From Myxococcota bacterium (GTDB lineage Bacteria > Myxococcota_A > UBA796 > CAJQPC01): a stretch of 64,000 nucleotides of DNA. Position numbers and translations under genes: made by a program. The first letter of the stretch is position 1, and each line of letters opens with the position of its first letter. Shown here in pieces: positions 7,335 through 31,459 of this stretch. The notes below the pieces were generated by a model. The model saw nothing but the letters and a program-made list of their open reading frames with translations. It was not told the origin of the DNA and searched no databases. Location of the stretch: positions 1 to 64,000 of the forward strand of contig DASCPX010000190.1 in NCBI GenBank assembly GCA_036012755.1, given 5' to 3'.

Positions 7335-7562
7335 CTAGCCGCAGCCGCAGCCGCCCCCAAGGCCGCCGACCCCTCCGAGCGAGCCCTCTCGGACATCCAT
7401 GACGTGGCCACGGAAGGCCTCGTCCATCGTGGGGGTCATGTCCATTGCCGGGTGGCTCAGGACTCCACGCTCCCAGGGCTTGACCGCAGCGCAGCCAGTG
7501 AGCCCGCCGAGGATGAGACCCAAGGCGAGCAGGCGGAGGACAGTGGCGCTCGACGTGCTCAT
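7335..7562 (-). CDS. DUF4266 family small lipoprotein
   Basis: LTGC lipobox, VKPWERG.L, C-terminal GGGCGC. Confidence 0.9.
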   Translation of the reverse strand: MSTSSATVLRLLALGLILGGLTGCAAVKPWERGVLSHPAMDMTPTMDEAFRGHVMDVREGSLGGVGGLGGGCGCG

Positions 7563-7595
7563 GAGGTCAGACTATCAGGACTCGGAGGTCCCGGC

Positions 7596-8096
7596 ATGAC
7601 AGCCCTGATCGCCCTCGCCTGCACCGCCGGGAGCCACGGCCCCGCCACGACAGAGGGGTCCCCCCAAGTGGCGCCGGGCGAGGTCCTGCCGACGCTCGAG
7701 CTGCACGATCTCGAGGGACGACCGCGCTCGCTGGCCGAGTTCGAGGGCGAGGTGCTCCTGGTCGACTTCTGGGCGACGTGGTGCGCACCCTGCGCGCTGT
7801 CCCTGCCGATCTACGACGGCTGGCAGCAACAGTACGGCGACGCCGGCCTGCAGATCCTGGCCGTGAGCGTGGACACCGCGAACGCGCCGGTGGCCCCCTT
7901 CGCCGAGGACCACGCCCCCAACCTCCTGGTCCTGCGCGACCCGGAGGGCACCGCGGCGACGAAGCTGGATCTCCCCGGCATGCCGACAGCCTTCCTGCTG
8001 GACCGCGAAGGCAAGCTGGCCGGCTACCACGTGGGCTTCGCAGAGGGAGAACAGCAGCAGGTCCTCGCCCAGCTCCTGCCGTTGTTGGAGGACTGA
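7596..8096 (+). CDS. TlpA/ResA-family thiol-disulfide oxidoreductase lipoprotein
   Basis: LVDFWATWCAPC, cis-Pro GMPT, GGAGG RBS. Confidence 0.92.
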   Translation: MTALIALACTAGSHGPATTEGSPQVAPGEVLPTLELHDLEGRPRSLAEFEGEVLLVDFWATWCAPCALSLPIYDGWQQQYGDAGLQILAVSVDTANAPVAPFAEDHAPNLLVLRDPEGTAATKLDLPGMPTAFLLDREGKLAGYHVGFAEGEQQQVLAQLLPLLED

Positions 8097-8794
8097 TGCT
8101 GGCTCTGCTGCTGTCTGGCTGCGTCGGCAGCGGTGAGATCCCTGCCCGGGTCAGCGGCCAGATCGTCGACGAGTACGAAGCCCCCCTCGGCCCTGGGCTC
8201 GTCATGATCGAGTTCGGACCGGTCCACGACGGTGCCTACCAGCTGGGAGCCCTGATCGACGATGACGGTCGCTTCACGGTGGATCTGCCCAGCGGCGGGA
8301 CCTGGGGCCTCCACCTCTTCACCGACGGCTACCAGTACCTGCCCGCCGAGATCACCATCGAGGACCACCAGCAGGTCATCCTCACGAGCATGATGATCTC
8401 CTGGGGGGTCTGGATGGACCTCACCGGCGAGCCCTCCTGGCCCACCCAGCCCACCGACGCGACGCTGGTCCGCATGCCGGTGGACGAGACCATCGACGAC
8501 AACCCGGTCATGGACGAGGTCTCGGTCGAGGACGCCGGCGACGGCTACCTGGAGCTCACGGCCGATGTCTGGGACCCGGACGAGGACCTCTCTCGCATGG
8601 TCCTCGCCTACGACAGCGCTACGGGGACCGGCTACGCGCTGAACCCGCCAGAGGCCCCGGACACCAAGGGCAACTACCCCGACGGCACCTACAGCACCCT
8701 CGCGATCGAGGACAGCGAGCTGGGGGACGGCCCCTGGTACTTCGTCGTGTCCGACAACATGTGCAACGACACGGACATCTGGATCCTGCCCTGA
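8096..8794 (+). CDS. lipoprotein with carboxypeptidase-regulatory-like (Ig/transthyretin-like) domain
   Basis: TGATG coupling; MLALLLSGC; VSGQIVD...DDDGRFTV. Confidence 0.65.
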   Translation: MLALLLSGCVGSGEIPARVSGQIVDEYEAPLGPGLVMIEFGPVHDGAYQLGALIDDDGRFTVDLPSGGTWGLHLFTDGYQYLPAEITIEDHQQVILTSMMISWGVWMDLTGEPSWPTQPTDATLVRMPVDETIDDNPVMDEVSVEDAGDGYLELTADVWDPDEDLSRMVLAYDSATGTGYALNPPEAPDTKGNYPDGTYSTLAIEDSELGDGPWYFVVSDNMCNDTDIWILP

Positions 8795-8795
8795 G

Positions 8796-9284
8796 CTACT
8801 CGACCAGGACCAGCTCCACAGAGGACTCCAGCTCGCGCCCGCAGCCGTCGACCACAACGCCGACGATCTCGATCGGCCGATCTGTCATCACTCCGATCTC
8901 GGCCGCGGTGATGATCGAGCGCAGGCCCAGGAACTCGACGTAGTCCTCTTCCTCGACCGAGGGGACCATCGTGACCACGGTGCCACCGAAGATCTCGCCG
9001 TCGTCCAGCATCGCGACGCTCAGATCGCTGCCGAAGCCGCCCGCGAGGGGCTCCTCCATGCCCCACACCTGGAGGCTGATGGTGACCATGTGCTGGCCCT
9101 GGGGGCCAAACGACACCAACAGATCGTCACCGTCAGTCAGCTCCTGGAACCCAGAGCCCAGGTTCCCCGAGCCGACCACCGCCTCTCCAGGCTCCGGATC
9201 GCGGCAGGGCAGCGGCTCCACATCCGGCGTCGGCCGACAGGAGCAGAGCACGGCCAGGCCGAGCGCAGCCAGGAGCAGCCTCAC
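8796..9284 (-). CDS. hypothetical lipoprotein
   Basis: GTGA-coupled start, VRLLLAALGLAVLCSC; GPQGQH motif. Confidence 0.65.
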   Translation of the reverse strand: MRLLLAALGLAVLCSCRPTPDVEPLPCRDPEPGEAVVGSGNLGSGFQELTDGDDLLVSFGPQGQHMVTISLQVWGMEEPLAGGFGSDLSVAMLDDGEIFGGTVVTMVPSVEEEDYVEFLGLRSIITAAEIGVMTDRPIEIVGVVVDGCGRELESSVELVLVE

Positions 9285-10432
9285 TCGGCGGCCTGGGAGG
9301 GGCAGTTGAAGAAGAGCGTGTTGTCGTTTCCGGGGATGGCGTTGCCCGCGAGCTCTTCCGAGAGCGACTCCGGCTCGCCCACCCACCCCAGCTCGACCAG
9401 CTCGTAGACGTCCGAGGGTGCCTTGGCGATGCTCTCGTCCTGGTCGACCGTGCTGTCGATGAGCACCACGTCGTCGTCGTGGGCGGGGTCGATGAGCACG
9501 CGCTGGACGCGCCACAGCGGGGAGTAGATGCGGTCGTCGGGGCTCTCGGACTCGGTCCGGGGGAAGCCGGAGATGATGTTGTTGTTGTCGGCCTTGTCGC
9601 CGTCGGCCGTCAGGTCGAGCTCCACTCCCCGCTCGCTGACCGCCCCCGCCTCTGCGCTGGTGCTGTTGCAGACGTCGTAGGTGGAGCCGCCTTCGCAGTC
9701 CCGGAAGAACACGAAGATGTCGGCGAAGGGCATCAGCGGGCGGGTCTCGCTGTCTTCGGCCGGAGGGAAGACGCCGTCGGTCTCGGTGAAGTCGAAGAAG
9801 GTGAGCTGGTACTGCTTGTGCCAGCCCTCCTGGAGCGGCACATCCAGCGCCGAGGTCCCCGGGTCCTCGACCGTGGGTTCGCCGTTGCCCTGGAGCTCCG
9901 TGCCGTCGAGCGCCAGGAGGCAGTGCATGATCGCGGCGTCCGGGCCGACCGAACCGCCGTGGTCGAAGACGACGAGCTCGACCCGGAGATCGCCCCCGGC
10001 CTCCGCCTGCTCGATGCCGTGGACGGACTTCAGGGCGTTGGGCTCGTAGTCGTGTGGCACGACCACCCGCCAGATCAGCCAGAAGGGTGAGTAGTCCATC
10101 TCCCCCGGGATGGTGGACAGCACGGGGTTCCCGACAGCCCGGTCGCGGTCGATGGCTCCGGTGGAGTCGAGGGGACAGGCGTCGTCGCCCTCGCGGCAGA
10201 ACCAGAAGATGTCCGCAGCGATGCGAGACGCGAAGCCGGCGAACCAGTAGGCCGAAGGATCCCCGGCGAAGAAACCGTTGAGGAGCCGGACGTGCCGGTC
10301 GCCGTTTTCCAGCACGTTCCCGGGCCACACGGTCTGGGCGACCTCGTCCACGGTCTGCTCGATGCGCCCGAGATCCTCCTCGACCGTCGGCTCGATGGGA
10401 GGACACCCGAGAAGCAGCAGAGCTGGGAGCAC
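9281..10432 (-). CDS. lipoprotein with duplicated YSP(F/L)W domains, function unknown
   Basis: MLPALLLLGC; DYSPFW and IYSPLW repeats, each followed by an (N/H)C motif. Confidence 0.7.
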   Translation of the reverse strand: MLPALLLLGCPPIEPTVEEDLGRIEQTVDEVAQTVWPGNVLENGDRHVRLLNGFFAGDPSAYWFAGFASRIAADIFWFCREGDDACPLDSTGAIDRDRAVGNPVLSTIPGEMDYSPFWLIWRVVVPHDYEPNALKSVHGIEQAEAGGDLRVELVVFDHGGSVGPDAAIMHCLLALDGTELQGNGEPTVEDPGTSALDVPLQEGWHKQYQLTFFDFTETDGVFPPAEDSETRPLMPFADIFVFFRDCEGGSTYDVCNSTSAEAGAVSERGVELDLTADGDKADNNNIISGFPRTESESPDDRIYSPLWRVQRVLIDPAHDDDVVLIDSTVDQDESIAKAPSDVYELVELGWVGEPESLSEELAGNAIPGNDNTLFFNCPSQAAE

Positions 10433-10501
10433 GCGGTCACCTCGCAGACCCCCATGTTATCACCGGCGGGCCCCGCCCGCGGAGACGGCATACTGCGGTC
10501 T

Positions 10502-10993
10502 ATGCCTGCGCCGAGGGTCCTGGCAATGCTGTTTTCGACCGGCTGCGTCGGCACTGGCCAGGGCCTGCCGAATGTGCTCGTCGACGAAGCGCAGGGTCCG
10601 ACGACCTTCCTGGAGATCCAGACGCAGATCTTCGACACGACCTGCGCCCCGCAGTGCCACAGCGGAGGGGCCGCCTCCAAGGGCCTGAACCTCGAGCAGG
10701 GCCGCTCGCTGGACAGCCTGGTCGAGGTGCCCTCGGTCGAGCTGCCCGAGACCATGCGCGTCGCCCGGGGAGACGCCTACAACAGCTACCTGATCATCAA
10801 GCTCGAGGCCTACGACAGCCGACGGGTAGGCTCCCGGATGCCCCGCACCGGCCCCCCCTACCTCTCCAACCCCCAGATCCGTGCTCTGGGTCAGTGGATC
10901 GACGCCGGCGCCGCAGAGGACTGGGTCGCCGGCGACGACGAGCCGGAAGACACGGACGAGCCGGAAGACACCGGCCCGGGAGACAGCGAATGA
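10502..10993 (+). CDS. cytochrome c-like lipoprotein (CX3CH; planctomycete cytochrome C-like)
   Basis: STGC lipobox, CAPQCH, SYLIIKL..GSRMP..WIDAGA; acidic DEPEDT repeat tail. Confidence 0.75.
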   Translation: MPAPRVLAMLFSTGCVGTGQGLPNVLVDEAQGPTTFLEIQTQIFDTTCAPQCHSGGAASKGLNLEQGRSLDSLVEVPSVELPETMRVARGDAYNSYLIIKLEAYDSRRVGSRMPRTGPPYLSNPQIRALGQWIDAGAAEDWVAGDDEPEDTDEPEDTGPGDSE

Positions 10994-12069
10994 GCTGGCT
11001 GCTCTTGCTCGGGACCGCAGAAGCCGAACCCCGCATGGCCGTCCGGCAGGGTGTGCAGTGCGGGACCTGCCACGTGAACAACACCGGCGGTGGGATGCGC
11101 ACGGACTACGGCAACTCCTTCTCCGCGACGAACCTGCCGACCTGGACCGTGGACGGCAGCTTCGATCCCTGGCTGGGAGAGCGCGTGCGGGTGGGGACCG
11201 ACATGCGCGTCGGCGCGATGACCAGCTTCGCCGCTGACACCGAGCTCGACGGCATCGAGCGCCACGTCGACGCCAGCAGCTCCTTCGAGATGCCCGTCGG
11301 CAACCTCTTCCTGCAGCTCGAGGCCATCCCAGATCGCCTGTACGTCTACTTCGACGAGACCGTCGCTCCAGAGGGGGCCTCTGCGAGAGAGGCCTGGATG
11401 ATGTTCGAGGACACCTCCGGCCTCTACGTAAAGGCCGGGCGCATGCTCCTTCCCTACGGCCTGCGCATCCCCGACGACCAGGCCTACATCCGCCAGCAGA
11501 CCGGCTTCACCTACGCCAACCAGGACATGGCCCTGGAGCTGGGACTGGACCGGCGCCACATCTTCGCCGCGGCGGCGCTCAGCAACGGCAGCGGTGGGGG
11601 CGGCGACTCGAACCTGCCCAAGCAGCTCACCGGAAGCGTGGCCGCCGTGAACAGCTGGGGACGGATCGGCATGTCGGCCGCCTGGAACAACACCTCCACA
11701 AAGGACATGGAGTTCAAGACCGCCACCGGGGGCGTCCACGGCGGGCTGAGGCTCGGCCGCTTCGTGCAGCTGGCCGAGGTGGACTGGATCCACGGCATCA
11801 GCACCACCGAGACCTACGACCAGTGGGCGATCTACACCGAGACCGACTTCGAGGTGCTCAAGGGCCTGTACCTGCGCTTCGCCTTCGGAGCCTTCGACCC
11901 CATGGTCGCCCTCGAGGAGAACGAGCGAGACCGCTTCGTGCTTGGAATGAGCTGGTTCCCGAGGCAGTACCGGGAGCTCCGCATCGACTACCGGATCAAC
12001 CGCGACATCCCCCAACGCGTCGACGAAAACGCCAACGAGCTCGTCATCGAGCTCCACGCATTCCTATGA
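10990..12069 (+). CDS. outer-membrane beta-barrel with N-terminal monoheme CxxCH (cytochrome-porin fusion)
   Basis: EPRMAVRQGVQCGTCH after a short signal; amphipathic beta strands, YVKAGRM..PYGLR, C-terminal strand ELVIELHAFL. Confidence 0.75.
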   Translation: MSWLLLLGTAEAEPRMAVRQGVQCGTCHVNNTGGGMRTDYGNSFSATNLPTWTVDGSFDPWLGERVRVGTDMRVGAMTSFAADTELDGIERHVDASSSFEMPVGNLFLQLEAIPDRLYVYFDETVAPEGASAREAWMMFEDTSGLYVKAGRMLLPYGLRIPDDQAYIRQQTGFTYANQDMALELGLDRRHIFAAAALSNGSGGGGDSNLPKQLTGSVAAVNSWGRIGMSAAWNNTSTKDMEFKTATGGVHGGLRLGRFVQLAEVDWIHGISTTETYDQWAIYTETDFEVLKGLYLRFAFGAFDPMVALEENERDRFVLGMSWFPRQYRELRIDYRINRDIPQRVDENANELVIELHAFL

Positions 12070-12926
12070 AGCACGCGAAGACCACGGCGGTGCTGCTCGG
12101 GGCGACCTCGGTCCTCGCCGCTGGAGCCTGGGCAGCAGAGGATCCCTTCTGGGGCCAGGCGACCGCCGAGCGTGGCCGCATCGTCTACCGAGCGAACTGC
12201 GTCGGCTGTCACGGGGACGAGGGCGACGGCCAGGGTCCAGCCGCCGACACGATGTTCCCAGCGCCGCGGGATCTCACCGCCGCCGAGTACCGCTTCCGCA
12301 GCACTCCGACCGGTGCCCTGCCCACCCGCGACGACCTGCTCCGCACCCTGGAGCTCGGGCTTCCAGGCACGGAGATGCCGGCCTGGGGACGCCTGCTGGA
12401 TCCCGTCGAGCTGCGCTCGGTGGTGCTCTACCTCGAGACCCTCTCGCCCCGCTTCGAGCAGGGACCACAGACAGCGACGATCGTGCCCGGAGTCCCCCCG
12501 GAGGTGACGCCGGAGCTGCTCGCCCGTGGCTCCGAGATCTACGTCGAGCTGAAGTGCGGGGTCTGCCACGGTCCAGAAGGGCGAGGCGACGGCAAGGCAG
12601 CCGCGGGCCTGGCCGACGAGGGCGAGCCGAGCCCGGTCTTCGACTTCACCTTCGGGGTCTACAAGGGCGGAAACACCCCAGAGGATGTCTACCGGACCTT
12701 CATGACCGGCCTCAACGGCACGCCGATGCCCTCCTACGCAGCCTCCATCCCCGACGAGACGGACCGGTGGGCGCTGGTGCACTACGTCCGCTCGCTCACC
12801 CGCCCGCGCGGGCTCGGCTTCTACCTCGGCAACCGCGTGACCTGGCGGGACCCGCTCGGGCCCTACGCCACCAGGGTCGGACTCGCCGTCGAGACGCCAG
12901 TCGAGGATGAGATCCCGGAGTGGTGA
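12066..12926 (+). CDS. diheme cytochrome c
   Basis: CVGCH..GTEMP and CGVCH..GTPMP, signal peptide. Confidence 0.9.
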   Translation: MKHAKTTAVLLGATSVLAAGAWAAEDPFWGQATAERGRIVYRANCVGCHGDEGDGQGPAADTMFPAPRDLTAAEYRFRSTPTGALPTRDDLLRTLELGLPGTEMPAWGRLLDPVELRSVVLYLETLSPRFEQGPQTATIVPGVPPEVTPELLARGSEIYVELKCGVCHGPEGRGDGKAAAGLADEGEPSPVFDFTFGVYKGGNTPEDVYRTFMTGLNGTPMPSYAASIPDETDRWALVHYVRSLTRPRGLGFYLGNRVTWRDPLGPYATRVGLAVETPVEDEIPEW

Positions 12927-13462
12927 TGGACAAGTGGGAGCGGCTGAGCCGCGAGACCATGTACCGAACTGGCTTCTTCGAGGTCCACCGCGACCGGGTC
13001 CTGCGACCGGACGGTCAACAGATCGACTACGGCGTCGTGGAGTGCGGCCACTGCGTCGGGGTGCTCCCGATCTTGCCCGACGGCTCGGTGGTGCTGGTCC
13101 GCCAGTACCGCTACATCGCCGGCCGAGCGACCTGGGAGATGCCCACGGGCGGAGTCGACCCGGGAGAGAACCCCGAGCAGGCAGCCCAGCGCGAGCTCGC
13201 CGAAGAGGCCGGATACCGGGCCGGCTCGCTCCGACATCTCAGCACCTTCCACACCTCGAAGAGCAGCATCGACGAGACCGCCCACCTCTACCTGGGCGAG
13301 GCCCTCGAGCCCGCAGTCGCCGAGGGGGACGACACGGAGTTCATCGACACCCGGGTCTTCGCCTTCGACGAGGTCCTCTCGATGGTCGAGGCCGGCGAGA
13401 TCGTCGACAGCATGACCATCATCGCCGTCCTCCAGGCAGCCCTGGATCGCACCCGAGGATGA
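12926..13462 (+). CDS. NUDIX hydrolase (ADP-ribose pyrophosphatase-like)
   Basis: LVRQYRY, Nudix box GGVDPGENPEQAAQRELAEEAG. Confidence 0.92.
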   Translation: MDKWERLSRETMYRTGFFEVHRDRVLRPDGQQIDYGVVECGHCVGVLPILPDGSVVLVRQYRYIAGRATWEMPTGGVDPGENPEQAAQRELAEEAGYRAGSLRHLSTFHTSKSSIDETAHLYLGEALEPAVAEGDDTEFIDTRVFAFDEVLSMVEAGEIVDSMTIIAVLQAALDRTRG

Positions 13463-13910
13463 CCTCGACCCGCTCCCGCTCCCGCTCCCGATCGTAGTCC
13501 CGCAGAGGCAGCCGACCCATCCTCACTGCGCGCTTGATGCAGATGTCCTCGCACTCGCCGCAGCTCACGCAGCGCTCGGGGGCATCCAGGATCGCGATGC
13601 CCTGGAAGCGCGGGCCGATGACGGCGATGCAGTCGAAGGGACAGATCTCCGAGCAGAGCGCGCAGCCGTTGCAGAGCACGGCGTCGATGCGTGGATGCGG
13701 GCGGTTCTTTCGTGGGAGCCGCTCCACGAGGGTCCCGTGGGGGTCGATCACGGTCTCGGTCGGACAGTTCCAGCCACAGACCCCACAGTCGATGCAGCGC
13801 CGCGGATCGATGACGTGCAGCTCGTCGCGCTCGCCGAAGATGGCCCCGGTCGGGCACTGGCGCTGGCAGGCGGTGCAGCCGCTGCAGGTGGGCAGGATGG
13901 TGTGGGCCAT
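13419..13910 (-). CDS. polyferredoxin, four [4Fe-4S] motifs
   Basis: Four CxxCxxCxxxC motifs. Confidence 0.9.
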   Translation of the reverse strand: MAHTILPTCSGCTACQRQCPTGAIFGERDELHVIDPRRCIDCGVCGWNCPTETVIDPHGTLVERLPRKNRPHPRIDAVLCNGCALCSEICPFDCIAVIGPRFQGIAILDAPERCVSCGECEDICIKRAVRMGRLPLRDYDRERERERVEVILGCDPGLPGGRR

Positions 13911-13923
13911 CAGGCGCCCGACA

Positions 13924-14658
13924 TCAGATGTTGAACCAGGGGGTCACCCAGACGTACTTCACGTCCAGCAACAGCCGCAGGGCGATCTTGACCGGAATCG
14001 CCGCCATGCTGAGGAAGAGGAAGGAGGCGACGGCGTAGCGCCAGCCGTCGATGGTCAGCTTGGCGCGGCGCCAGCGCCAGAAGGCCAGGGCCTGCCCGTA
14101 CCAGGCGAGGACGAAGAGGCCCCCGACCACCATGGCGACGGGGCCGGGCTCGATGCCGAGCAGGTCCGTGAGGTCGCGGGTGCTCAGATCGACGTGCTTG
14201 GGGGTGCTCCAGGACTCCCAGGGCCAGTACCAGTTCCAGCCCGGCCCTCTACAGAAGACCCCGACGAGGATGGGGAGCACCCACAGGCCCAGGAAGCCGA
14301 AGAGGAAGCCGCCGATGGCGAAGGGCCGCTCGCGGAGGGTGAAGAAGCCGTTGCCCCGCGGGTTGTCGTCCAAATACGGGATGGCGATGAGCCCCACGAT
14401 GATCAGCCCGGGGAGCATGACGCCGGCGATCCAGGGGTCGAAGTAGACCAGCAGCTCCTGCAGCCCGAGGAAGTACCACGGAGCCTTCGAAGGGTCGGGG
14501 GTGAGGTTGGGGTCTGCGGGGCCCTCCAGCGGGGCGTCGATGGTGATGGACCAGACGACCAGCACGATGGTCGCCACCAGCGCGACCAGCAGCTCCACCC
14601 GGACGAGGTTCGGCCAGACCGCCACACGATCCGGGAGGGTCGGGTCCTGCTGGCTCAT
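13924..14658 (-). CDS. cytochrome b subunit IV-like (C-terminal) protein
   Basis: ADPNLTPDPSKAPWYFLGLQELL (PEWY equivalent), IPYLD. Confidence 0.88.
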   Translation of the reverse strand: MSQQDPTLPDRVAVWPNLVRVELLVALVATIVLVVWSITIDAPLEGPADPNLTPDPSKAPWYFLGLQELLVYFDPWIAGVMLPGLIIVGLIAIPYLDDNPRGNGFFTLRERPFAIGGFLFGFLGLWVLPILVGVFCRGPGWNWYWPWESWSTPKHVDLSTRDLTDLLGIEPGPVAMVVGGLFVLAWYGQALAFWRWRRAKLTIDGWRYAVASFLFLSMAAIPVKIALRLLLDVKYVWVTPWFNI

Positions 14659-14822
14659 CGCCGCATCTCCTCGCCGACGGCGTCCTCGCCTCCCTCCTCG
14701 AGCAGGCGGTCGTGCTTCAGCGCCTGCTTCAGCCAGACCCCGAGGAGGAGGACCAGGGCCAGGACCATGCCCGCGATGGGGAGGTTGTCCGGCTGGGTCA
14801 GGATGTGGAGGAAGGTCTCCAT
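14655..14822 (-). CDS. small single-TM subunit of the Rieske/cytochrome b operon
   Basis: [21 protein letters not shown]...; coupled to neighbours on both sides. Confidence 0.75.
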   Translation of the reverse strand: METFLHILTQPDNLPIAGMVLALVLLLGVWLKQALKHDRLLEEGGEDAVGEEMRR

Positions 14823-15613: not shown

Positions 15614-16125
15614 GCCTGGCCCTCGTCCAGGAGCACGCTGGCCCCTGAGAGGTGCCAGCTGTCCTCTGGGAACACCCGACCGACATCCACCCGGAGCTCC
15701 CCGTCCCGGTGGACCCAGACCTCCACTCGATCCAGGGGTCTGGGCGCGGGGCCCTCGACGTTGATGCCCTCTGTGGTGAAGCCGGAGCCGTGGCAGGGGC
15801 ACTTGAAGCGAAGCCGGTGGCGGTACCAGCGCGGCGTACAGCCGAGGTGGGAGCACTTGGCGTAGACCGCGTAGAGGCGCTCCTCGTCGCGGACGATGAA
15901 GACCCGCCAGCTCTTGACCCAGCGCTCGCTGACACCGACGGCGTAGTCCTCGATCCGGCCAGCCTTGAAGACGGTGGGAGGCTCGATGGGCGCGCGCCGG
16001 TAGAGCAACCTGAAGAAGCTGCCCGCGAAGCCCAGGCCGCTGGCACCAAGGGCCCACCAGCCGACGCGGGAGACGAAGTCACGCCGCCGCCAGAGGTCCT
16101 CGGGCTCGCGCGAGTCCTTGCTCAA
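15610..16125 (-). CDS. Rieske [2Fe-2S] subunit
   Basis: Tat-like RRRDFV + TM; CSHLGC and CPCHGS. Confidence 0.95.
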
Positions 16126-23189: not shown

Positions 23190-24640
23190 GCGGCCAGCTC
23201 CTCGCGGCTCCGGCAGATCACCCAGCAGAGGCCCACGGCGTCGAGCAGCAGGAAGGGCGCGATCTCGTAGACGCCGGCGTAGACCAGCGCTCCGAAGGCC
23301 AGCAGGCAATACGCGAACAGCATCAGCTCGAGGTGCTGGACGCGGCCATCGCCAGAGAGCCGGTAGCGCCGCCTGGGGCGGTCTTCCGAGCCCACGACTC
23401 CCAGCTTCGGGGTGCGGACGAAGTCTCCCCGCGGACCCACCCACGCGGCGAGGACCGCGATCGAGTTGCTCACGGCGATGCCCACACCCAGGAGCGTCAT
23501 CATGCCGAGCTCACGCGGCCTGAGCAGGCGGCGATGCAGGACCCACTGGGAGTAGACGTGCAGCAGCACCGGTCCGGTCATCGCCAGGGCGAAGGGCACG
23601 GCGAGGGTCCACGGGCTGCGGGCCCCAGAGGCCATGCCGGGCAACAGCAGGCATGGAATCGAGAGCAGCGCGCTCAGCACGATGAGGGGGTGGATCGCGT
23701 AGTGGGTGAGGTGAAGCGTCGCCTGGATCCGAGCGACGAGGGACTTGTCCCCGGATCGCCAGATCGCCGGGAGCAGCTTCCGCGCGGTCTGCATGCTGCC
23801 GGTGGCCCAGCGCCGCTGCTGGACCTTGAAGGCGCCCAGCTGAGTGGGCAGCTCGGCGGGACAGACGATGTCGGGGTCGTAGGCGATGCGCCAGCCCTGG
23901 AGCTGGACCCGGTAGGAGAGATCGAGGTCCTCTGTCAGGGTGTCGCCGGACCAGCCGCCCGCGTCGAGAATGGCCTCCTTGCGCCAGATCCCCGCGCTGC
24001 CGTTGAAGTTGAGGAACCAGCCGGCGCCCATCCGAGCCCCCTGCTCGACGCCGAAGTGCCCGTCGATGCCCAGGGCCTGGGCCTCTGTCAGGCGAGACCA
24101 GCCCCTGTTGAGGTGGGTCCAGCGACCCTGGATGGCGGCGATCTCGGGGTCCGAGAAGTAGCCCATCGCCTGCTCCAGGAACTCGGGTGGCGGCACGAAG
24201 TCCGCGTCGAAGAGCGCCAGGAAGTCCCCACGGCAACTGGCGAGGCTCTCCTGCAGCGCCCCGGCCTTGAAGTCCACGCGGCGCTCACGGCGCAGGTGCG
24301 CGACCTGGAGGCCCCGCTGGCGCAACCGCGCGAGGACCTCGACGGCGATGGCGGTGGTGCCGTCGGTGGAGTCGTCGAGGAGCTGGATCTCGAGCCGGTC
24401 CCTCGGCCAGCGCAAGGCCCCGGCGGCCTCGAGCAGACGCTCGATGACGTTCTCCTCATCGTAGACGGGGAGCTGGACCGTCACGAAGGGGAGCTCCTCG
24501 GGCAGGGGGGGCGCAGGGGCTCGGCGGCGCCGGTGGACAGCGTCCGCGAGGACCAGCAGCAGCGTGTTGGTCCCATAGACCAGCATCAACGCGAGCAGGA
24601 AGGCGTAGAGCACCAGCGCGGCGGTGATCAGCGTCTCCAC
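23186..24640 (-). CDS. processive membrane glycosyltransferase family 2 (cellulose synthase-like)
   Basis: VTVQLPVYDE, LDDSTD, FKAG, FDADF, TEDLD, QQRRW. Confidence 0.93.
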   Translation of the reverse strand: METLITAALVLYAFLLALMLVYGTNTLLLVLADAVHRRRRAPAPPLPEELPFVTVQLPVYDEENVIERLLEAAGALRWPRDRLEIQLLDDSTDGTTAIAVEVLARLRQRGLQVAHLRRERRVDFKAGALQESLASCRGDFLALFDADFVPPPEFLEQAMGYFSDPEIAAIQGRWTHLNRGWSRLTEAQALGIDGHFGVEQGARMGAGWFLNFNGSAGIWRKEAILDAGGWSGDTLTEDLDLSYRVQLQGWRIAYDPDIVCPAELPTQLGAFKVQQRRWATGSMQTARKLLPAIWRSGDKSLVARIQATLHLTHYAIHPLIVLSALLSIPCLLLPGMASGARSPWTLAVPFALAMTGPVLLHVYSQWVLHRRLLRPRELGMMTLLGVGIAVSNSIAVLAAWVGPRGDFVRTPKLGVVGSEDRPRRRYRLSGDGRVQHLELMLFAYCLLAFGALVYAGVYEIAPFLLLDAVGLCWVICRSREELAA

Positions 24641-25890
24641 GGGCGCTCCTCTGCGAGGAAGAAGAGCCCCGCCGGGATGAACTCGATGAGCGGGACCCAG
24701 GTTGGCATCACCCCGTCGGGGCTCGCGTACTTCAGGTAGCTGAGAGGTAGCGTGGCGCTCAACCAGAGGGCACTCGCGCGGGGGCGGAAACAGATCCAGG
24801 GCAGCCACCACAGGGCGTACCAGGGGTGGAAGGCGGTGGGCAGCGTGAGGAGGTAGACACCGACGAGGGCGCCCAGCTGGTGGACCACCGGGCCGCCCCG
24901 CCGGCGGATCCACACGGTCGCGAAACCGAGCACTGCGAGACAGAGCAGGAAAGCGGGGGTGCGGGGCCGCTCGAACACGGGGCTCAGGGCCGACTCCAAC
25001 AGGCGCCGCAGGCCGACGTTGTGGTCCTCTGCCGTGCGCACGTAGTCCGGCAAGAAGCCCAGGACGTCGAGCCCGGCCTCGTAGCCATAGAGCCCGTAGA
25101 GCCCCACCACGACGAGGGCACAACAACCCAGCACCCGCCAGGGCTTGCCCCGCGCGAGCGCCGCGAGCGCCAGCGCCGGGTAGAGCTTCATCGCCACCGC
25201 CTGGCCGAGCAGCAAGCCGACGAGGCGATGTCGGCTCGCGTGGAGCGCCAGCACCGCCCCGACCAGAAGCGGCAGCATCGCCGCCTCCATGTGACCGCCG
25301 TTGCCTACCTCGAGGACCACCAGGGGTGACCAGGCGTAGAGCACGACCTTGGCCGGTTCCTTGCCCAACCGCCGCAGCAAGAGCGCGATCAGCCCCATGG
25401 TCAGCAAGTCGAACAGCACCATCACCAGCCGGAGCAGGTCGATGTCGTAGGGGATGAACCTGTAGAGGAGCTGCGCTCCCGGCGGGTAGATCGTCCGAGC
25501 CGAGGGGCGATTGATGCGCGGGTGGATGAGCTCGTCGCGGAGCGACTCCAGCGCCGGATCCTGTGGCGGGAAGGCGTAGGGGCTGTGTCCGGCTCGCTGG
25601 ACGAGGCCATCCCAGGCGTAGCGGTGGCAGTCGCTCGAGAGCAGAGGCGGCTCCCCGACGGAGACGACGCGGAAGACCACGGCCAGCGCCAGGACCGGAA
25701 CGAGCATGCCCCGCGGGCGGCGCCAGACGAGCAGGGCCGACAGCAGGTAGAGGGCGAACAGCGGCAGGCTCAGGAGCGGGAGCACCTGCGTCGCCGGTCC
25801 GGCCAGAGCGTCGGGGCCCAGGACGTAGAGCCACAGCGACAGCCCGCCCAACAGGGCCAGGGCAAGCAGCGAGACCACGACTCTTGCCAT
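24628..25890 (-). CDS. GT-C membrane glycosyltransferase (GT87/DUF2029-like)
   Basis: LSSD.HRY.WDG, TIYPP, YAWSP..GNGGH.E, FHPWY. Confidence 0.85.
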   Translation of the reverse strand: MARVVVSLLALALLGGLSLWLYVLGPDALAGPATQVLPLLSLPLFALYLLSALLVWRRPRGMLVPVLALAVVFRVVSVGEPPLLSSDCHRYAWDGLVQRAGHSPYAFPPQDPALESLRDELIHPRINRPSARTIYPPGAQLLYRFIPYDIDLLRLVMVLFDLLTMGLIALLLRRLGKEPAKVVLYAWSPLVVLEVGNGGHMEAAMLPLLVGAVLALHASRHRLVGLLLGQAVAMKLYPALALAALARGKPWRVLGCCALVVVGLYGLYGYEAGLDVLGFLPDYVRTAEDHNVGLRRLLESALSPVFERPRTPAFLLCLAVLGFATVWIRRRGGPVVHQLGALVGVYLLTLPTAFHPWYALWWLPWICFRPRASALWLSATLPLSYLKYASPDGVMPTWVPLIEFIPAGLFFLAEERPWRR

Positions 25891-25905: not shown

Positions 25906-26724
25906 TCAGTAGTGCTCGATCGGCTCCAGGGAGACGCCGACGACGATGTCGGACTCGACCTCTACCTCTGTCCGCGACAGCAGCTGGAGCCGGCCACCGG
26001 ACTCCAGGCGGCCGAAGGTGTCCACCGTGACGATCCCCGCGGGCAGGTTCGGCACCACGAAGCGGCCCGAGCTGCCCGTGTAGGTGCGGCTGTCCACGGG
26101 CTCCCAGCCTTCGGTGTAGTAGACGCCGTCGGTGGAGCCGTCGATCCTCACGATGGCGTTGGAGACACCGAATGAGTCGCAGTCGTGCACGGAGCCGACC
26201 AACAGCCCGGTCCCAGGCTCGACGGTCAGGGACAGGGCGCTGGCCCAGGTCTCCTGCTCCTCGGGCGTGACGAGCCAGGCCCACCCGTTCACGGAGGCCG
26301 CGGTGACCCGGCGGCTCACCCACAGGGTGGTGTCCAGGTAGCCGTCGTAGGAGACGCGGGCGTGGCCCCGGAAGCCATCGCTGGTCACGGGCACGGTGAC
26401 CGCGACCCGGCCGGACTTTCCGGCGTCGGCAAACCCCGTTCCGATCTCGGTCCCGCCAGCGTCGAAGACCTGGACCTCGGCGGCCGGGGGCAGGTCAGAG
26501 GCCGTGGGATCGGCGAGGGTCCGCACGTAGCCGGTGAGCTCGACGCTGGATCCTGACGGGTCGTCCTGACGGTTGCTGCCGACACAGCTCAGGCGACCCT
26601 CCGCCGCGCCCGTCGGAGCCCCAGCGGGCTCGTCGTCGAGGTACTCCGGATCGGCGGGCTGGGAATCCCGGCTGTCGTCGGGGTTGGGGTTGCAGAGACC
26701 CCCAAGGAGCAGGATCAGGTTCAT
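25906..26724 (-). CDS. lipoprotein with carboxypeptidase-regulatory-like domains
   Basis: ATGA-coupled; MNLILLLGGLC; GSVHDCD..GRFVVPNLPAG. Confidence 0.65.
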   Translation of the reverse strand: MNLILLLGGLCNPNPDDSRDSQPADPEYLDDEPAGAPTGAAEGRLSCVGSNRQDDPSGSSVELTGYVRTLADPTASDLPPAAEVQVFDAGGTEIGTGFADAGKSGRVAVTVPVTSDGFRGHARVSYDGYLDTTLWVSRRVTAASVNGWAWLVTPEEQETWASALSLTVEPGTGLLVGSVHDCDSFGVSNAIVRIDGSTDGVYYTEGWEPVDSRTYTGSSGRFVVPNLPAGIVTVDTFGRLESGGRLQLLSRTEVEVESDIVVGVSLEPIEHY

Positions 26725-28973
26725 TCGGTCTCCTCTGCGCGCTGCGGCACCACCGGGCTGCCGAGGACGAGGTTGATGGCCTCGGCGTCCAGGGGTCCGG
26801 GAGTCTGGGATTCGTCGATGTGGGTCGTGCTCACCACGGGCCAGGCCTCGTAGACGAGGGTGGGCAGGTCGCCAAGGGTCGGATCATCCTCTTCGCCGTC
26901 GCCGTCCGTGTCCACCGCGACCAGGCGGTCGAGCTGGTGGATGTTGCCCTCACCGTCTTCGAAAGTGTAACGGCCAGAACCAAGCCCCGTGGCCGTCAGG
27001 ACGACCGAGTCCTCGTGGGTGTCGTCGACCGCCGGGTGACAGCCGTCGCAGTCCCGGGGCTCCTGGCGAATGGTGTGGTGGTGGACCGGGTTGTGCACGT
27101 TGCCCTCGCCCGTGACCCCGTCGCCGTCGGTCACAGGCGCAGCGTCGATGACCCGGTCACCAGCGTCGTCGATGTGGGTGAAGAAGATCGCCGTCCCGAC
27201 CATCGGCGAGATCTTGCCTCGCCCGTTGATGCCCATGGACAGCGAGTCCGCGACGACGCTCATGCCGTAGGTCGAGGCCTTGCCCTGCCGCGTCTCGCCG
27301 GAGAGCGGGCTGACGTAGCTCTCCCGGTCATCGCGCACCATGTGGCATCCATAGCAGTTCACCGTCCAGGCGTTGTGGCAGGTGAAGCACTCGACGCGGC
27401 CGGCGCTCTCCTCTTCCGGGATCGTGAAGGTGAAGCCTGGAGGGAGACCCGGGAAGGCCTCGGCCTCTGGATCGCTGGCGGCGAGGGCGTTGGCCTCTGC
27501 CTTCAGCTCGGCCCGGCGCTCGGCGGAGCCAGCGTGAAGCTCGCAGCCTGCTCGGGTCCGGGGGTTGTAGTCGTCGTCCTCGGCGTCGGTACGCTCGGTG
27601 ATCTGCGTGACCGGGTGGAGCGCGCCGGTGAAGCGGCCCAGCTGGAGCACCGAGCCGTCGTCCCTGGTCTCGAAGACCTGGGTGTTGGTCCCAAAGTCAC
27701 CAGGCGTCGTCTCGGAGATCGTGAAGGCCAGCTCGCTCTCCGAGCGCAGGGGTCCCTCGTCTCCCGGGCGGCCATGGCAGCTCTGGCAGCGGACGTCGAG
27801 CTCCAGGTCCATCCGGCCCGGCATGGCGTCGCTGCCGTGGGACTCGCGGATGTTGTGGCAGTCGATGCAGCCGAGCCCAGCCGCCGTGTGCACGTCCGGA
27901 GGGGTCTCGTCGACCTCGTTGGTGTCGTCCTCGTCCTCGATGAAGTAGGGGTAGGGCTTGCCGTAGATCTCGGACAGCCCCTGGAAGGGCACGTAGTTGT
28001 CCTCTGACCAGGGCAGCATGTGCTCCGGGTCCTCGACCCCACGGTTGGGCCCGCCAAGGGCCTCGTCCCCATCTGGCTCGGAGCGCTCCCGCACGCCCTG
28101 GGCGAGCAGCGAGCGCCCCAGGTGCGAGATGTGACAGCGGGCGCACTGGCTGTCGGGGACGCGGTTGGTGAAGCGGTGGGTCTGGACGTGGCCGAGCTCC
28201 TCCAGATCCTGGGTCTCGTCGGCGGTCTCGGCGCGAGAGGAGTCGCTGGTCGGGAGGTGGCAGGCGTTGCAGCCGGAGGAGTAGTAGAGCCCCGGCTGGC
28301 GGTGACCGTCCTGGCCGAGATGACAGCTCAAGCAGAGCTGCTCGACCACAGGATGGAAGGCGGCTGCCAGCGGATCCGCGTCATCTGCGGGGCTCTCCGG
28401 CCAGAGCTCGACCTCGCTGATGTAGCCCTCCGGCAGCTCCGCTGGCACGTAGTCGTCCTGGCGCTGGACCGAGCCGTAGTGGGCGTCCTTGTCCTGGAGG
28501 CCCACCAGGAAGGCCCCGCCTGCGAGCTGTCCGGCGAGGGTCGCGCGGGTCATCAACAGGCTGCTCTCGACGATCGGACCGTGGCAGCTCGCTCCGCCCA
28601 GCGGGCCCTCGCCACAGCTGGTCGCGGCGACCCGGTAGTCAGAGGGGTTCAAGAACTGGATGACATCGAGCGGCAGCTCGTCCAGCTCCTGGAGCGATGG
28701 TCGATCGAGGTAGGTCTCGCCCGGGGTGGAGGGGTTGAAGGAGATGTCCACCGTGACGTGGGCCTCCTCCTTGTCCAGGCTCGTGGCGTCACCCAGGTGG
28801 CAATCGACGCAGGTCAGGGCAGGCCCGCCGTAGTGGATCTGCTCGACGGCATCGTGGCACTCGGAGGTGACGCAGCCCCCGTTGAACTCGCTGACGTGTG
28901 CCCCTTCGGGTTCCCAACAGCCGAGACCGAGCATCACGACGAACAACGGAGACAATCGCCAAGACGTCATCAT
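26721..28973 (-). CDS. multiheme cytochrome c lipoprotein (resembles Geobacter Ext-type multihemes)
   Basis: LGLGC lipobox; 9 CxxCH plus CX4CH and CX9CH; PDVH...CIDCH and CFTCHNAW..CYGCH pattern. Confidence 0.85.
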   Translation of the reverse strand: MMTSWRLSPLFVVMLGLGCWEPEGAHVSEFNGGCVTSECHDAVEQIHYGGPALTCVDCHLGDATSLDKEEAHVTVDISFNPSTPGETYLDRPSLQELDELPLDVIQFLNPSDYRVAATSCGEGPLGGASCHGPIVESSLLMTRATLAGQLAGGAFLVGLQDKDAHYGSVQRQDDYVPAELPEGYISEVELWPESPADDADPLAAAFHPVVEQLCLSCHLGQDGHRQPGLYYSSGCNACHLPTSDSSRAETADETQDLEELGHVQTHRFTNRVPDSQCARCHISHLGRSLLAQGVRERSEPDGDEALGGPNRGVEDPEHMLPWSEDNYVPFQGLSEIYGKPYPYFIEDEDDTNEVDETPPDVHTAAGLGCIDCHNIRESHGSDAMPGRMDLELDVRCQSCHGRPGDEGPLRSESELAFTISETTPGDFGTNTQVFETRDDGSVLQLGRFTGALHPVTQITERTDAEDDDYNPRTRAGCELHAGSAERRAELKAEANALAASDPEAEAFPGLPPGFTFTIPEEESAGRVECFTCHNAWTVNCYGCHMVRDDRESYVSPLSGETRQGKASTYGMSVVADSLSMGINGRGKISPMVGTAIFFTHIDDAGDRVIDAAPVTDGDGVTGEGNVHNPVHHHTIRQEPRDCDGCHPAVDDTHEDSVVLTATGLGSGRYTFEDGEGNIHQLDRLVAVDTDGDGEEDDPTLGDLPTLVYEAWPVVSTTHIDESQTPGPLDAEAINLVLGSPVVPQRAEETE

Positions 28974-29038
28974 CTGGAGCTCACACGGCCTGCCTGTCGA
29001 CAAATCCAGGGTAACCCCGGTGACGTTAGAGTGGGCCG

Positions 29039-29506
29039 ATGTGGATGGGCCGCCAGCGCCACTGCAGCCTGCTCCTGGGAGCCGCGACAGTGTTCGTGTC
29101 GGGCTGCGAGCTCGACAACTCCTATCGCCCCTACCCGGAGCCTGGCTTCGACACCTACGTCGTTTCGGTGCAGCCCATCGTGTCCGAGAGCTGCGCTTCG
29201 CTGGGCTGCCACGGCACCTACGATCGCCGCCTGACCCTCTTCGCAGAGGACTACCTCCGGGGCGAGGCGGCCGTGACCGGGACTCCCCTCGAGGACCGCC
29301 TGACCGAGGCCGAGCTGGCCTGGAACTACGACGGGATGCGGATGCGGCTGGCTGACGAGGTCGACGCGGACACGAGCTTCCTGTTGCTCAAGTGCCTGGA
29401 TCCCGAGCTGGGGGGAATCCGCCACGCAGAGGACGAGGTGGTCTTCGACTCGGTCGACGACCCCGACTACCGCGCCCTGCGCGACTGGATCGAGGAGGGG
29501 CTCTGA
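29039..29506 (+). CDS. lipoprotein with CX4CH heme-like motif
   Basis: VSGC lipobox; VQPIV..SCASLGCHG; SFLLLK..GGIRH..Y..LRDWI. Confidence 0.7.
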   Translation: MWMGRQRHCSLLLGAATVFVSGCELDNSYRPYPEPGFDTYVVSVQPIVSESCASLGCHGTYDRRLTLFAEDYLRGEAAVTGTPLEDRLTEAELAWNYDGMRMRLADEVDADTSFLLLKCLDPELGGIRHAEDEVVFDSVDDPDYRALRDWIEEGL

Positions 29507-30603
29507 GTATCCGGGGCGGGTACGCGATCCTGCTGCTGTGTCTCTCCTGCGCCACCCGGCAGCAGGTCGAGCTGACGGAGCAGGTAGGCCTAGGCGTCTA
29601 CGTCAACGACGACGATCTCCGGGTGATCGCCCCCTCCGCGGGGGTGGACCTGGTGAGCGGACCGTGGAGCGGCGGAGTCGGTGGGGAGATGGACGCGATC
29701 AGCGGGGCGACCATCGACGCGATCAGCGGGGCGACGCCCGGCTTCCGCGAGAACCGGTACGAGCTGGACCTGGACGGGGGCTGGGAGGGCGAGTCCTCGC
29801 GCCTGAACGCGGGCATCTACGGCGCCACGGAGAGCGACACGCGCAGCATCACGGGCAGCCTCGGCGGAGAGCTGGATCTCTTCCAGGAGAACCTCACCCT
29901 CGGGCTGAGCTACGGCCACGCCGAGTACCGCCAGGGCGAGGTCGAGGAGCCCTCGGAGCTCTGGGACCGCAAGGGGATCGACCAGATCGATCTCAGCGCC
30001 TCCCAGCTCCTGAGCCCCTCGACCGTGGTGCTGGGCGGCTTCACCTTCCAGCGCCTCGCCGGAGAGCTCGACAGCCCCTACCTCGACGTCCCGATCTTCC
30101 CGGCCGACGAGACACTGTGGACCCGCCGCCACGCCCAGTGGGTCCACGAGCGCCACCCCGACACGCGCCTGCGCTATGCCCTGACCCTGGAGGGTCGCCA
30201 GGCCCTGACCGAGCGCATGTTCCTGCACGCCGTCTACGTCGGCTACCTGGACTCCTGGGCCATGCGCGCCAACACGGGCGAGCTCGGCGTCTCGGCGGAC
30301 CTGGGCAGGGACGTCATCCTGGAGGTGCACGAGCGCTTCTACTGGCAGTCCTCTGTCAGCTTCTACCGCTCCGTCTACACGGTGAACCGCGACTACATCA
30401 CCCGGGATCGGCGCCTGGGTGAGCAGTGGACGAGCACCAGTGGCCTGGTCCTGACCCACCATGGAGAGCGCCTCACTCCGCACCTGGCGCTGGACTTCCG
30501 CGTCACCCACTACGACGACTTCTACGGGATCATCGGAGAGGAGCTGGTGCCGGTCCAGCGGCACCTCGCAGGCATCGCCCAGGTGGGTGCCAGCTTCGAG
30601 TAG
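29503..30603 (+). CDS. DUF3570 family outer-membrane protein
   Basis: DAISGAT x2, ERHPDTR.R, Y.DSW...ANT, RFYWQS..FY, YITRDRRL; start probably CTG 29503. Confidence 0.82.
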   Translation: MSIRGGYAILLLCLSCATRQQVELTEQVGLGVYVNDDDLRVIAPSAGVDLVSGPWSGGVGGEMDAISGATIDAISGATPGFRENRYELDLDGGWEGESSRLNAGIYGATESDTRSITGSLGGELDLFQENLTLGLSYGHAEYRQGEVEEPSELWDRKGIDQIDLSASQLLSPSTVVLGGFTFQRLAGELDSPYLDVPIFPADETLWTRRHAQWVHERHPDTRLRYALTLEGRQALTERMFLHAVYVGYLDSWAMRANTGELGVSADLGRDVILEVHERFYWQSSVSFYRSVYTVNRDYITRDRRLGEQWTSTSGLVLTHHGERLTPHLALDFRVTHYDDFYGIIGEELVPVQRHLAGIAQVGASFE

Positions 30604-30631
30604 GCCGCCCGACCCGGGCGACAGCTCACGC

Positions 30632-31459
30632 TCAGCGGATCCCCTTGCGGGCGTCCTCCCCCGGAAGCCGCCCCTGGACCAGCTCCAAGAGCGCCTCCGC
30701 TGGCACCGACAGGGGCAGGATGGTCGGCGTGACCAGCAGATCCGTGGCCAGCTGCCCGCCGCTCACGGTCGGACCAAAGGGCCCCCAGAAGGCACCGTCC
30801 GCGGTGATGGTGAGCTCGGGTGGGACCTCGCCGCGGGTGACCTCGAGCCCAGCCTGGTGATCTCGCGCGCGACCCCGGCGGACCACTGGCCGGACGACGT
30901 GCTCGTCTGGGGGGACTCCGAGCTCGGACAGCAGGGCGCGGAGGCACTCGAGGTCCTGCTCGCCGATCGACGAAGAGGTGGTCGCGACGCGCACCGCGAG
31001 CCCGCGAGACCGCAGCCCCTCGATGGCTTCGACCGTGGCTCGAAAGGCCCCGGGACCTCTGAGGCGGTCGTTCTCGGCGGGCACCGCGGAGTCGATGGAG
31101 AGCTGCAGCCTCACAGGGCGTCCCCTCAGCACCTCGAGCTCGTCGAGGACCGCGCCGACCAGCAGGCTGCCGTTGCTCAGGACAACCAGCGGGAGCAGCT
31201 CGGAGAGCTCGGACAACAGCGCGGGCATGCCGTCGATGAGGAAGGGCTCGCCGCCGGTGACACCGAGGGCCTCGAAGCCGAGCTCCCTGGCCTGCCGGGC
31301 GAGCTCCAGCATGACCTCCCTGCCGAGCCGCCGGGGAGCCGCGGAGGGCGAGGAGCCCGTCAGGCAGTAGCCGCAGGCGAGGTTGCAGTCGAAGTTGGCG
31401 TAGAGCCAGAGCCGCCCGGGCAGCAGGCCGCTGGCGATGGCCTCGTTCACGCTCTCCAT
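30632..31459 (-). CDS. radical SAM protein (Rv1681/ArsS-like neighbourhood)
   Basis: CNLACGYC, TGGEPF, SNG, QLSIDS, PELTITADG. Confidence 0.85.
   Translation of the reverse strand: MESVNEAIASGLLPGRLWLYANFDCNLACGYCLTGSSPSAAPRRLGREVMLELARQARELGFEALGVTGGEPFLIDGMPALLSELSELLPLVVLSNGSLLVGAVLDELEVLRGRPVRLQLSIDSAVPAENDRLRGPGAFRATVEAIEGLRSRGLAVRVATTSSSIGEQDLECLRALLSELGVPPDEHVVRPVVRRGRARDHQAGLEVTRGEVPPELTITADGAFWGPFGPTVSGGQLATDLLVTPTILPLSVPAEALLELVQGRLPGEDARKGIR

Follow-up and report, generated by a model that had tools for sequence, protein, structure and literature searches.

A stretch of 64,000 nucleotides from a Myxococcota bacterium (GTDB lineage Bacteria; Myxococcota_A; UBA796; CAJQPC01; assembly GCA_036012755.1, contig DASCPX010000190.1, positions 1 to 64,000 of the forward strand; hereafter the window) encodes a real, undescribed and co-inherited envelope redox system. 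Genes were called with a codon model trained on the source genome, and 27 were obtained over positions 7335-31459; the 26 genes at 7335-30603 probably constitute the co-inherited system, and the last gene, at 30632-31459, falls outside the core. The components that an earlier sequence-only reading of this DNA had listed were all recovered where it had placed them by Pfam searches and motif counts, including 20 CxxCH haem motifs (split 1 + 2 + 8 + 9) and four non-canonical ones (Cx3CH, two Cx4CH, and Cx9CH). The Pfam families comprised DUF4266, AhpC/Redoxin, Nudix, Fer4, the N- and C-terminal parts of cytochrome b, Rieske, DUF2064 joined to Radical_SAM (radical S-adenosylmethionine, hereafter radical SAM) and SPASM, two glycosyltransferase family 2 (GT2) domains, GT87, DUF3570, and a second Radical_SAM. 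It is judged highly probable that these genes form one system; a literature search, subscription papers and supplements aside, returned no description of the whole.

Co-inheritance was assessed from the gene for an 11-haem lipoprotein at 26721-28973 (minus strand; strands are given below as + or -). Among 7,997 candidates scored, a further 86, nearly all of them full-length, were related to this protein at 43-66% identity, and those with names were Myxococcota or Deltaproteobacteria. Species-representative genomes were also scanned, giving 327 confirmed matches, of which the 80 best were kept; the close set among these comprised 26 loci from 24 genomes (47-66% identity) and the others were at 31% identity or less. 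The 24 system genomes were thus picked by the 11-haem gene, partners were then searched in the whole genomes, and 38 relatives of the source genome without a full-length 11-haem gene served as controls. The lipoprotein lp383 was found in 22/24 system genomes and 0/38 controls, the haem barrel in 22/24 and 4/38, and the system-type GT87 in 21/24 (20 matches had E<1e-70, and the other one was truncated at a contig end) and 0/38, with 26 of the 38 controls carrying a GT87 paralogue of 38% identity or less; these are counts from draft assemblies of kin genomes, neither complete nor independent, which tempers them. The octahaem cytochrome occurred in 20/24 system genomes, with partial octahaem-like matches in two controls, and the DUF2064-radical SAM fusion in 19/24. 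Conversely, when 400 genomes were drawn from the phylum, with only four candidates scored per genome, lp383 was present in ten, which span four further families and all belong to the 24. No lp383 match was found in plasmids, and no carrier of the system was listed among RNA runs. The proposal of a single system was therefore upheld by co-inheritance in 24 genomes, its sub-modules being linked in relatives. The exception is the radical SAM gene at the end of the locus (30632-31459, -; Pfam Radical_SAM, Rv1681-like), which the sequence-only reading had included: it is peripheral and probably not core, occurring in 3/24 system genomes, on other contigs, and in 2/38 controls, and inside one other cluster (L100).

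Comparison of gene order revealed five fixed blocks that were rearranged relative to each other. In the first, the Cx4CH cytochrome and DUF3570 genes were adjacent in 21/21 cases and DUF4266 stood beside DUF3570 in 13/15 genomes. The second ran 11-haem-lp272-GT87-GT2-GT2-DUF2064/radical SAM, with successive adjacencies of 16/20, 19/20, 16/18, 12/12, and 12/12, which puts the 11-haem gene, as a rule, at the head of the glycosylation block. The third joined the Cx3CH cytochrome to the barrel (17/17) and the barrel to the dihaem cytochrome (18/19); the fourth held the copper protein, octahaem, Rieske, b6, small subunit, and subunit IV genes (12/15 to 15/15); and the fifth paired lp383 with lp160 (14/14). 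The between-block junctions of the window were mostly unseen elsewhere, except that from the 11-haem to the Cx4CH gene (16/21). Because the blocks are fixed and these junctions are mostly unique to the window, the DUF4266/DUF3570 bracket, once thought meaningful, is attributed to rearrangement of two genes that are ordinarily neighbours. In genome G043, 26 of the 27 genes lay in a single 32-kb block in an order differing from the window, most system genes formed one block in G062, and two blocks were present in G041. What emerges is an old and conserved system in uncultured myxobacteria, about 26-30 genes in size, of a kind that gene-order searches would miss.

The layout of the locus is by itself silent on unity. 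Strand changed at eight of 26 junctions, giving nine strand runs, so the locus is not one operon; the rate resembled that of the genome (1837/5574 junctions). The tight packing singled out earlier is ordinary in the source genome, where the median gap is 10 bp and 70% of gaps are <50 bp, and is therefore no evidence of unity. Neither flanking repeats nor mobile-element ends were found at the locus, and its GC content was similar to that of the rest of the window.

Several further observations, together with the nine strand runs, weigh against a single system. No shared regulatory motif was found across the locus, and no FNR-like box occurred in the seven upstream regions of the window. In many assemblies the Rieske block occupied a different contig, and no copy was found in 4/24; the pair of barrel and dihaem cytochrome also stands alone (genome G008), and G054 has the 11-haem gene and lp383 with no match to the system GT87, octahaem, or DUF2064-radical SAM, such that a reduced form of the system may exist. 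Pairwise distances for cytochrome b6 correlated at 0.57 with those of the 11-haem protein and at 0.56 with RpoB, and for the octahaem at 0.64 and 0.50; the Rieske block thus tracks the 11-haem protein about as well as it tracks RpoB. The strand runs, the stand-alone relatives of the modules, and the missing regulatory motif would all suit unrelated modules gathered in a low-oxygen gene island with no common function. This explanation is very improbable, however, as the same set persists across at least five families, more than one class, and many orders, with cross-module adjacency and fusions, and in 438 searched genome slots (38 + 400, with overlap) no lp383 turned up that lacked an accompanying 11-haem gene. 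Distances for GT87, GT2, lp383, the barrel, and DUF3570 followed those of the 11-haem protein (Spearman 0.80-0.89) more closely than those of RpoB (0.09-0.60), and the main clades common to the trees suggest old inheritance with frequent loss.

FNR-like boxes were set aside as support. With a consensus motif, they were found upstream of the 11-haem gene in 4/27 distinct regions (shuffle mean 1.0, reached in 2/100), but ten gene sets had been tested, a coding control scored equally, and none lay in the window. Half-palindromes of this type were seen upstream of the 11-haem gene in L034, L109, L112, and L101.

For the function of the single system, the preferred interpretation, given about an even chance, is that electrons from the quinol pool are moved through the envelope to an acceptor outside the cell, and that a radical-SAM-modified sugar is attached to the system's own surface proteins. 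Electrons would enter at a complex encoded by genes for subunit IV (13924-14658, -; five hydrophobic segments; Pfam and alignment), a 55-residue membrane subunit (14655-14822, -; alignment) that is fused to subunit IV in some genomes, a cytochrome b6-type subunit (14822-15613, -; Pfam), and a Rieske 2Fe-2S protein (15610-16125, -; Pfam and alignment), which may oxidise quinol. It is the only Rieske complex found in the source genome, which also has an ACIII-like complex and an A-type oxidase; because these and separate housekeeping GT2, GT87, and DUF2064-like genes are present, the system set is regarded as an addition. The second quinol electron might reach ferredoxin or NAD(P) through a polyferredoxin (13419-13910, -; four 4Fe-4S motifs by Pfam, no signal peptide seen) and, in some relatives, NuoE/NuoF/GltD-like subunits. 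A relay over the periplasm could be formed by a membrane-anchored octahaem cytochrome c (16122-18335, -), whose conserved residues, three distal His and five Met, would give three His/His and five His/Met haems, by a secreted protein with conserved His...Cys...His...Met (18339-19034, -; alignment), a putative type-1 copper motif, and by a His/Met dihaem cytochrome c (12066-12926, +; Pfam and alignment). Related operons in the Desulfobulbia-titled loci L088, L094, and L096 contained Rieske, b6, subunit IV, octahaem, and two ExtM-like multihaem genes and lacked the glycosylation block and lp383.

Two outer-membrane units would then carry the electrons outward. The first is a monohaem cytochrome fused to a predicted porin barrel (10990-12069, +; motifs and predicted structure), with one N-terminal CxxCH, together with its Cx3CH monohaem lipoprotein (10502-10993, +; conserved Met), which may pass electrons on. 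The Atlas model of the barrel had a predicted template modelling score (pTM) of 0.89, and the nearest named cluster was porin O/P at 0.97, with the family named on 12% of members. The barrel retained A-x-P-x-F/M-A and lacked the rest of the Cyc2 motif in 14/14 rows, the motif being given in the available part of the source as AXPXFAR[Q/K][T/Y] upstream and PXL downstream (PMC8406198). Proteins with a near-textbook Cyc2 motif were observed at L018:14002-15324 and L190:13263-14420, directly beside Rieske/b6/octahaem/copper-protein operons.

The same parts could run in reverse, with electrons from an outside donor (Fe(II), reduced humics, or a partner cell) moving through the Cyc2-like porin, dihaem, and copper protein and then being driven uphill by way of the Rieske complex to quinone and NAD(P). 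Such a direction is suggested by the Cyc2 layout and N-terminal motif register of the barrel, by AxPxFARR followed by PxL beside related Rieske operons in G033 and G046, and by NuoE-, NuoF-, and GltD-like genes adjoining the Rieske block in 8, 8, and 6 of the fetched stretches of the 24 genomes. It is nevertheless unlikely, since the barrel is without the Cyc2 R[QK][TY] and PXL elements, the NAD(P) subunits are absent from the window (best matches in the genome, 33-40%), and distant Cyc2 homologues are called functionally uncertain in the accessible portion of PMC8406198.

Outward transfer may also use a second unit of DUF3570, DUF4266, and the Cx4CH cytochrome. DUF3570 (29503-30603, +; presumed CTG start; Pfam and motifs) carries two tandem flavinylation motifs, both kept in 22/23 orthologues, the exception being cut off; it is preceded by a Cx4CH monohaem lipoprotein with a second conserved His (29039-29506, +). 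Of the two beta-barrels proposed previously, the haem barrel is backed by its predicted structure, and DUF3570 is a protein that we take to have a barrel fold; PDB sequence searches with the barrel and DUF3570 alignments gave nothing significant. Two such motifs of DUF3570 are reported to be flavinylated in Chlorobium in the text available from PMC8238504. DUF4266 is a small lipoprotein (7335-7562, -; Pfam, 60.6 bits) whose C-terminal CxC is invariant in 15 rows, and a TlpA/ResA-like thioredoxin lipoprotein (7596-8096, +; Pfam) is a variable member, present in the fetched stretches of 5/24 genomes. The reported absence of ApbE from the locus was confirmed and extends to the whole contig: the three ApbE copies and one DsbD/CcdA of the source genome are all on other contigs, ApbE occurs in 23/24 system genomes, the nearest copy ∼14 kb from a block, and DUF3570 would have to be flavinylated by an ApbE encoded elsewhere. 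Compact DUF4266/DUF3570/TlpA-like/ApbE clusters were seen at G000:C137:139674-146720 and G000:C117:9154-12157 in the source genome, the latter with a paralogue of the Cx4CH cytochrome.

Modelling of the presumed DUF3570 barrel with lipoprotein partners, which the sequence-only reading had advised, yielded one candidate. The predicted complex of the Cx4CH cytochrome with DUF3570 and DUF4266 scored 0.54, compared with 0.00 for the best control, the runs agreeing in at least 89% of contacts and the partner having a predicted local distance difference test (pLDDT) value of at least 82. Of 157 solved pairs 116 attained the mark for a complex, as did 2 of 215 mismatched ones, but among these passing pairs only 18 solved ones and both mismatches scored 0.60 or under; the prediction is thus a weak indication that the Cx4CH cytochrome may bind DUF3570 and DUF4266. 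A haem partner is suggested by this arrangement for DUF3570, the function of which is described as still open in the available text of PMC8238504.

The 11-haem lipoprotein has nine CxxCH motifs, one Cx4CH, and one Cx9CH, and it would act as the outer wire or the terminal reductase. All eleven motifs and >11 further His are kept, and Cys477 is unpaired and invariant in 36/36 sequences. Distant relatives of the protein resemble ExtM and are encoded next to Rieske operons of a similar kind; 18 of 116 distant multihaem loci were read, and the Cys477 position was not kept in the 18 distant relatives checked. The predicted model was weak (pLDDT 65.8), and fold searches with it gave nothing clear and were uninformative. 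Among the proteins of the locus, one match to a SoxX model passed its cut-off, via summed haem domains.

It is rather unlikely that the 11-haem protein is a catalyst of the kind seen in the Geobacter Ext cluster, reducing or oxidising a metalloid or sulfur species at an active site that contains Cys477. In its favour, the ExtM, ExtP, ExtQ, and ExtS models find matches, DUF4266 CxC and TlpA offer thiol chemistry, the invariance of Cys477 would suit an active-site residue, and Cys/haem sites are described as catalytic in TsdA and MccSep in the portion available of 10.1101/2025.11.18.688581. All the Ext scores were nonetheless below cut-off (ExtM 126/800, ExtP 258/290, ExtQ 51/150, and ExtS 42/100), neither the ExtKL/MccSep pentahaem selenoprotein nor the rhodanese ExtH was among the 27 genes, and the cysteine at position 477 is not retained in those distant relatives. 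Selenocysteine recoding was rejected, although the genome has selD, as the 504 orthologue alignments contained four stops and none at a cysteine. The arsenosugar models were likewise below cut-off at the locus (ArsS, TIGR04167, 39/300 bits; TIGR04283, 43/182 bits), and the true ArsS, over its cut-off, is on another contig (G000:C189:6026-8004), beside a gene that reads as ArsM-like; the arsenosugar explanation was therefore rejected, and the arsenic, selenium, or tellurium chemistry suggested for the locus gained no support.

Other multihaem surroundings were also recorded. About 6 kb from the 11-haem gene, at L013-L014 (G021:C30:17764-33449), N-termini alone read as a sulfur cluster of heterodisulfide-reductase-like, TusA, DsrE, and lipoate-protein genes. 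Rokubacteria-type distant multihaems occurred in L051, L055, and L118, followed in two loci by 2,000-residue proteins, and a second large multihaem cluster of the source genome (G000:C27:346842-355273) consists of genes with 5, 8, 2, 7, 9, and 8 haem motifs that flank a probable barrel gene. Radical SAM genes near distant multihaems in Desulfobulbia were read as lying among haem-synthesis-like genes and seem unrelated.

Returning to the proposed sugar modification, the glycosylation block encodes DUF2064 fused to a radical SAM/SPASM domain (20926-22518, -; Pfam), a polyprenyl-phosphate sugar synthase-like GT2 (22515-23189, -; Pfam), a membrane GT2 (23186-24640, -; Pfam) with QxxRW in 18/18 sequences, and a system-specific GT87 of the GT-C type (24628-25890, -; Pfam), together with the lipoprotein lp272 (25906-26724, -), which has no assigned function and lies between GT87 and the 11-haem gene. 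The best solved match of DUF2064 was a putative nucleoside diphosphate (NDP)-sugar transferase (3CGX, 4e-26) and that of the radical SAM domain was BtrN (1e-19), an aminocyclitol dehydrogenase; PqqE at 1e-15 was not far behind, which counts against the preferred interpretation. Modification of a sugar, as envisaged earlier, agrees with these closest solved relatives. DUF2064 was fused to the radical SAM domain or to Nudix, depending on the genome, and because Nudix fusions occurred in three loci, the Nudix hydrolase (12920-13462, +; Pfam) is assigned to the glycosylation block. These three activities would synthesise and police a modified nucleotide sugar; the sugar would be loaded on lipid phosphate by one GT2, the other GT2 may extend it, and GT87 would attach it, on the outer side of the inner membrane, either to lipoproteins encoded nearby or to the 11-haem protein. 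The model TIGR04282 scored 124.7 in the window (cut-off 134) and 157.5 (cut-off 134) in L034, and radical SAM relatives of 30% identity in genomes without the system had no glycosyltransferase neighbours. A housekeeping GT2/GT87 pair, by reading beside rimP-nusA-like genes, was noted at G000:C211:25148-28763 and in L255, a relative without the system.

It is improbable that the block yields something other than a protein glycan, whether a special lipid of the envelope or a small redox cofactor or shuttle that bears a sugar. Mycofactocin offers a parallel logic for a sugar-bearing redox cofactor, DUF2064 also matches CofC, lp383, without a known fold, could bind a new ligand, and 5/24 fetched loci encode another SPASM enzyme, for which the mycofactocin maturase model was the nearest (96 bits, cut-off 265). 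The source genome lacks that second enzyme, however, the loci share no conserved gene for a precursor peptide or a PqqD-like protein, and GT87 enzymes need a lipid-linked sugar and an outside acceptor. Under glycan attachment, the acceptor could be a lipid.

Among the lipoproteins, lp383 (9281-10432, -; DUF7482-type repeats), the best marker of the system, is often duplicated, and its family is small, with 24 representatives at E<=1e-30. Its model was confident (pLDDT 95.6). Foldseek returned nothing at E<=0.001, a comparison with 48,161 chains gave nothing at Z>=2, and the Atlas yielded no usable match; the predicted fold therefore matches no solved one, which does not prove a new fold. Its partner lp160 (8796-9284, -; start placed by overlap with the upstream stop) and lp232 (8096-8794, +), which is present in 19/24 genomes and usually follows DUF2064-radical SAM (adjacent in nine genomes), have no assigned function, as is also true of the exported protein u294 (20037-20921, +; sequence); alignments of u294 and lp232 gave no significant PDB sequence match. 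The internal sequence repeats of lp323 (19062-20033, +) point to a putative beta-propeller. The locus provides a context for six exported proteins without assigned function, among them lp383, whose confident model matched no solved fold. Upstream of the locus, the window contains a 51-nt unit in three tandem copies that are 92-93% alike (5994-6156), with no confident gene call, and a 592-residue membrane protein (3745-5523) that is GT-C-like by eye, has paralogues elsewhere in the genome and no Pfam match, and is absent from related loci.

In its most ambitious form, the proposal is a new class of respiratory machine spanning the envelope and comprising a bifurcating b6-type complex, twin outer-membrane conduits (one haem-plugged, the other flavin-plus-haem), an 11-haem enzyme with a catalytic cysteine, and a hitherto undescribed radical-SAM-made sugar or sugar-bearing cofactor handled by a new-fold lipoprotein; this is doubtful, and if true it would give DUF3570 its first mechanism. 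Myxobacteria are usually treated as aerobic, and the system points to a route of extracellular respiration in uncultured members. It also links a small fixed glycosylation pathway directly to a multihaem cytochrome, making the role of cytochrome glycosylation testable with five enzymes.

By sequence comparison, the system resembles a porin-cytochrome respiratory conduit but falls outside the Ext, Cyc2, and arsenosugar groups. The anammox Rieske/cytochrome b complex Kustd1480-1485 was taken as a comparison design, from the portion available of PMC12954380; shared features are a split, b6-like cytochrome b, a subunit IV with five helices by hydropathy count, a hexa- or octahaem cytochrome c, and NAD(P) oxidoreductase genes, the last in the system's relatives only. 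Unlike the anammox complex, the NAD(P) module is here NuoE/F and GltD-like, optional, and absent from the window. The haem cN cysteine, at the position we take it to occupy, likewise occurs in 0/15 system sequences.

The outer-membrane units have separate counterparts. With the flavinylation module of DUF3570-DUF4266-thioredoxin-ApbE(-DsbD) (accessible text of PMC8238504), the system shares a DUF3570 with two [S/T]GA[S/T]-like motifs, the DUF4266 CxC, and a thioredoxin-like protein, but its locus is without ApbE and DsbD, and the partners of its DUF3570 are a Cx4CH cytochrome and a multihaem chain; DUF4266, DUF3570, and TlpA are mentioned as neighbours only in the available part of 10.1101/2023.06.07.544157. 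As in Cyc2, a single N-terminal haem precedes a porin O/P-like barrel with the same A-x-P-x-F-A spacing, whereas R[QK][TY] and PXL are missing and the length of 359 residues is under the 365-residue filter given in the sections available of PMC8406198.

The arsenosugar cluster similarly has DUF2064 and GT2 beside a radical SAM enzyme, but the radical SAM domain here is not ArsS. Geobacter OmcE clusters, as described in the available text of PMC13712944, hold multihaems, propeller lipoproteins, a barrel, and GT2/4/39 genes together, and OmcE shows density likely from glycosylation; the system likewise combines genes for multihaems, a putative propeller lipoprotein, and a barrel with neighbouring genes for glycosyltransferases and sugar-modifying enzymes. 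No sequence match to OmcE was found among the locus proteins, and, unlike in the OmcE clusters, the glycosylation set is small and fixed and a Rieske complex is part of the locus. The Geobacter ExtHIJKLMNOPQS cluster (accessible portion of PMC5877670) also brings together a porin-like protein, an ExtM-like multihaem, Rieske, split cytochrome b, and a lipoprotein cytochrome; from it the system differs in model scores that are all below cut-off and in having neither rhodanese nor ExtKL selenoprotein, and beyond it the system adds DUF3570/DUF4266, the octahaem, the glycosylation block, and the six exported proteins.

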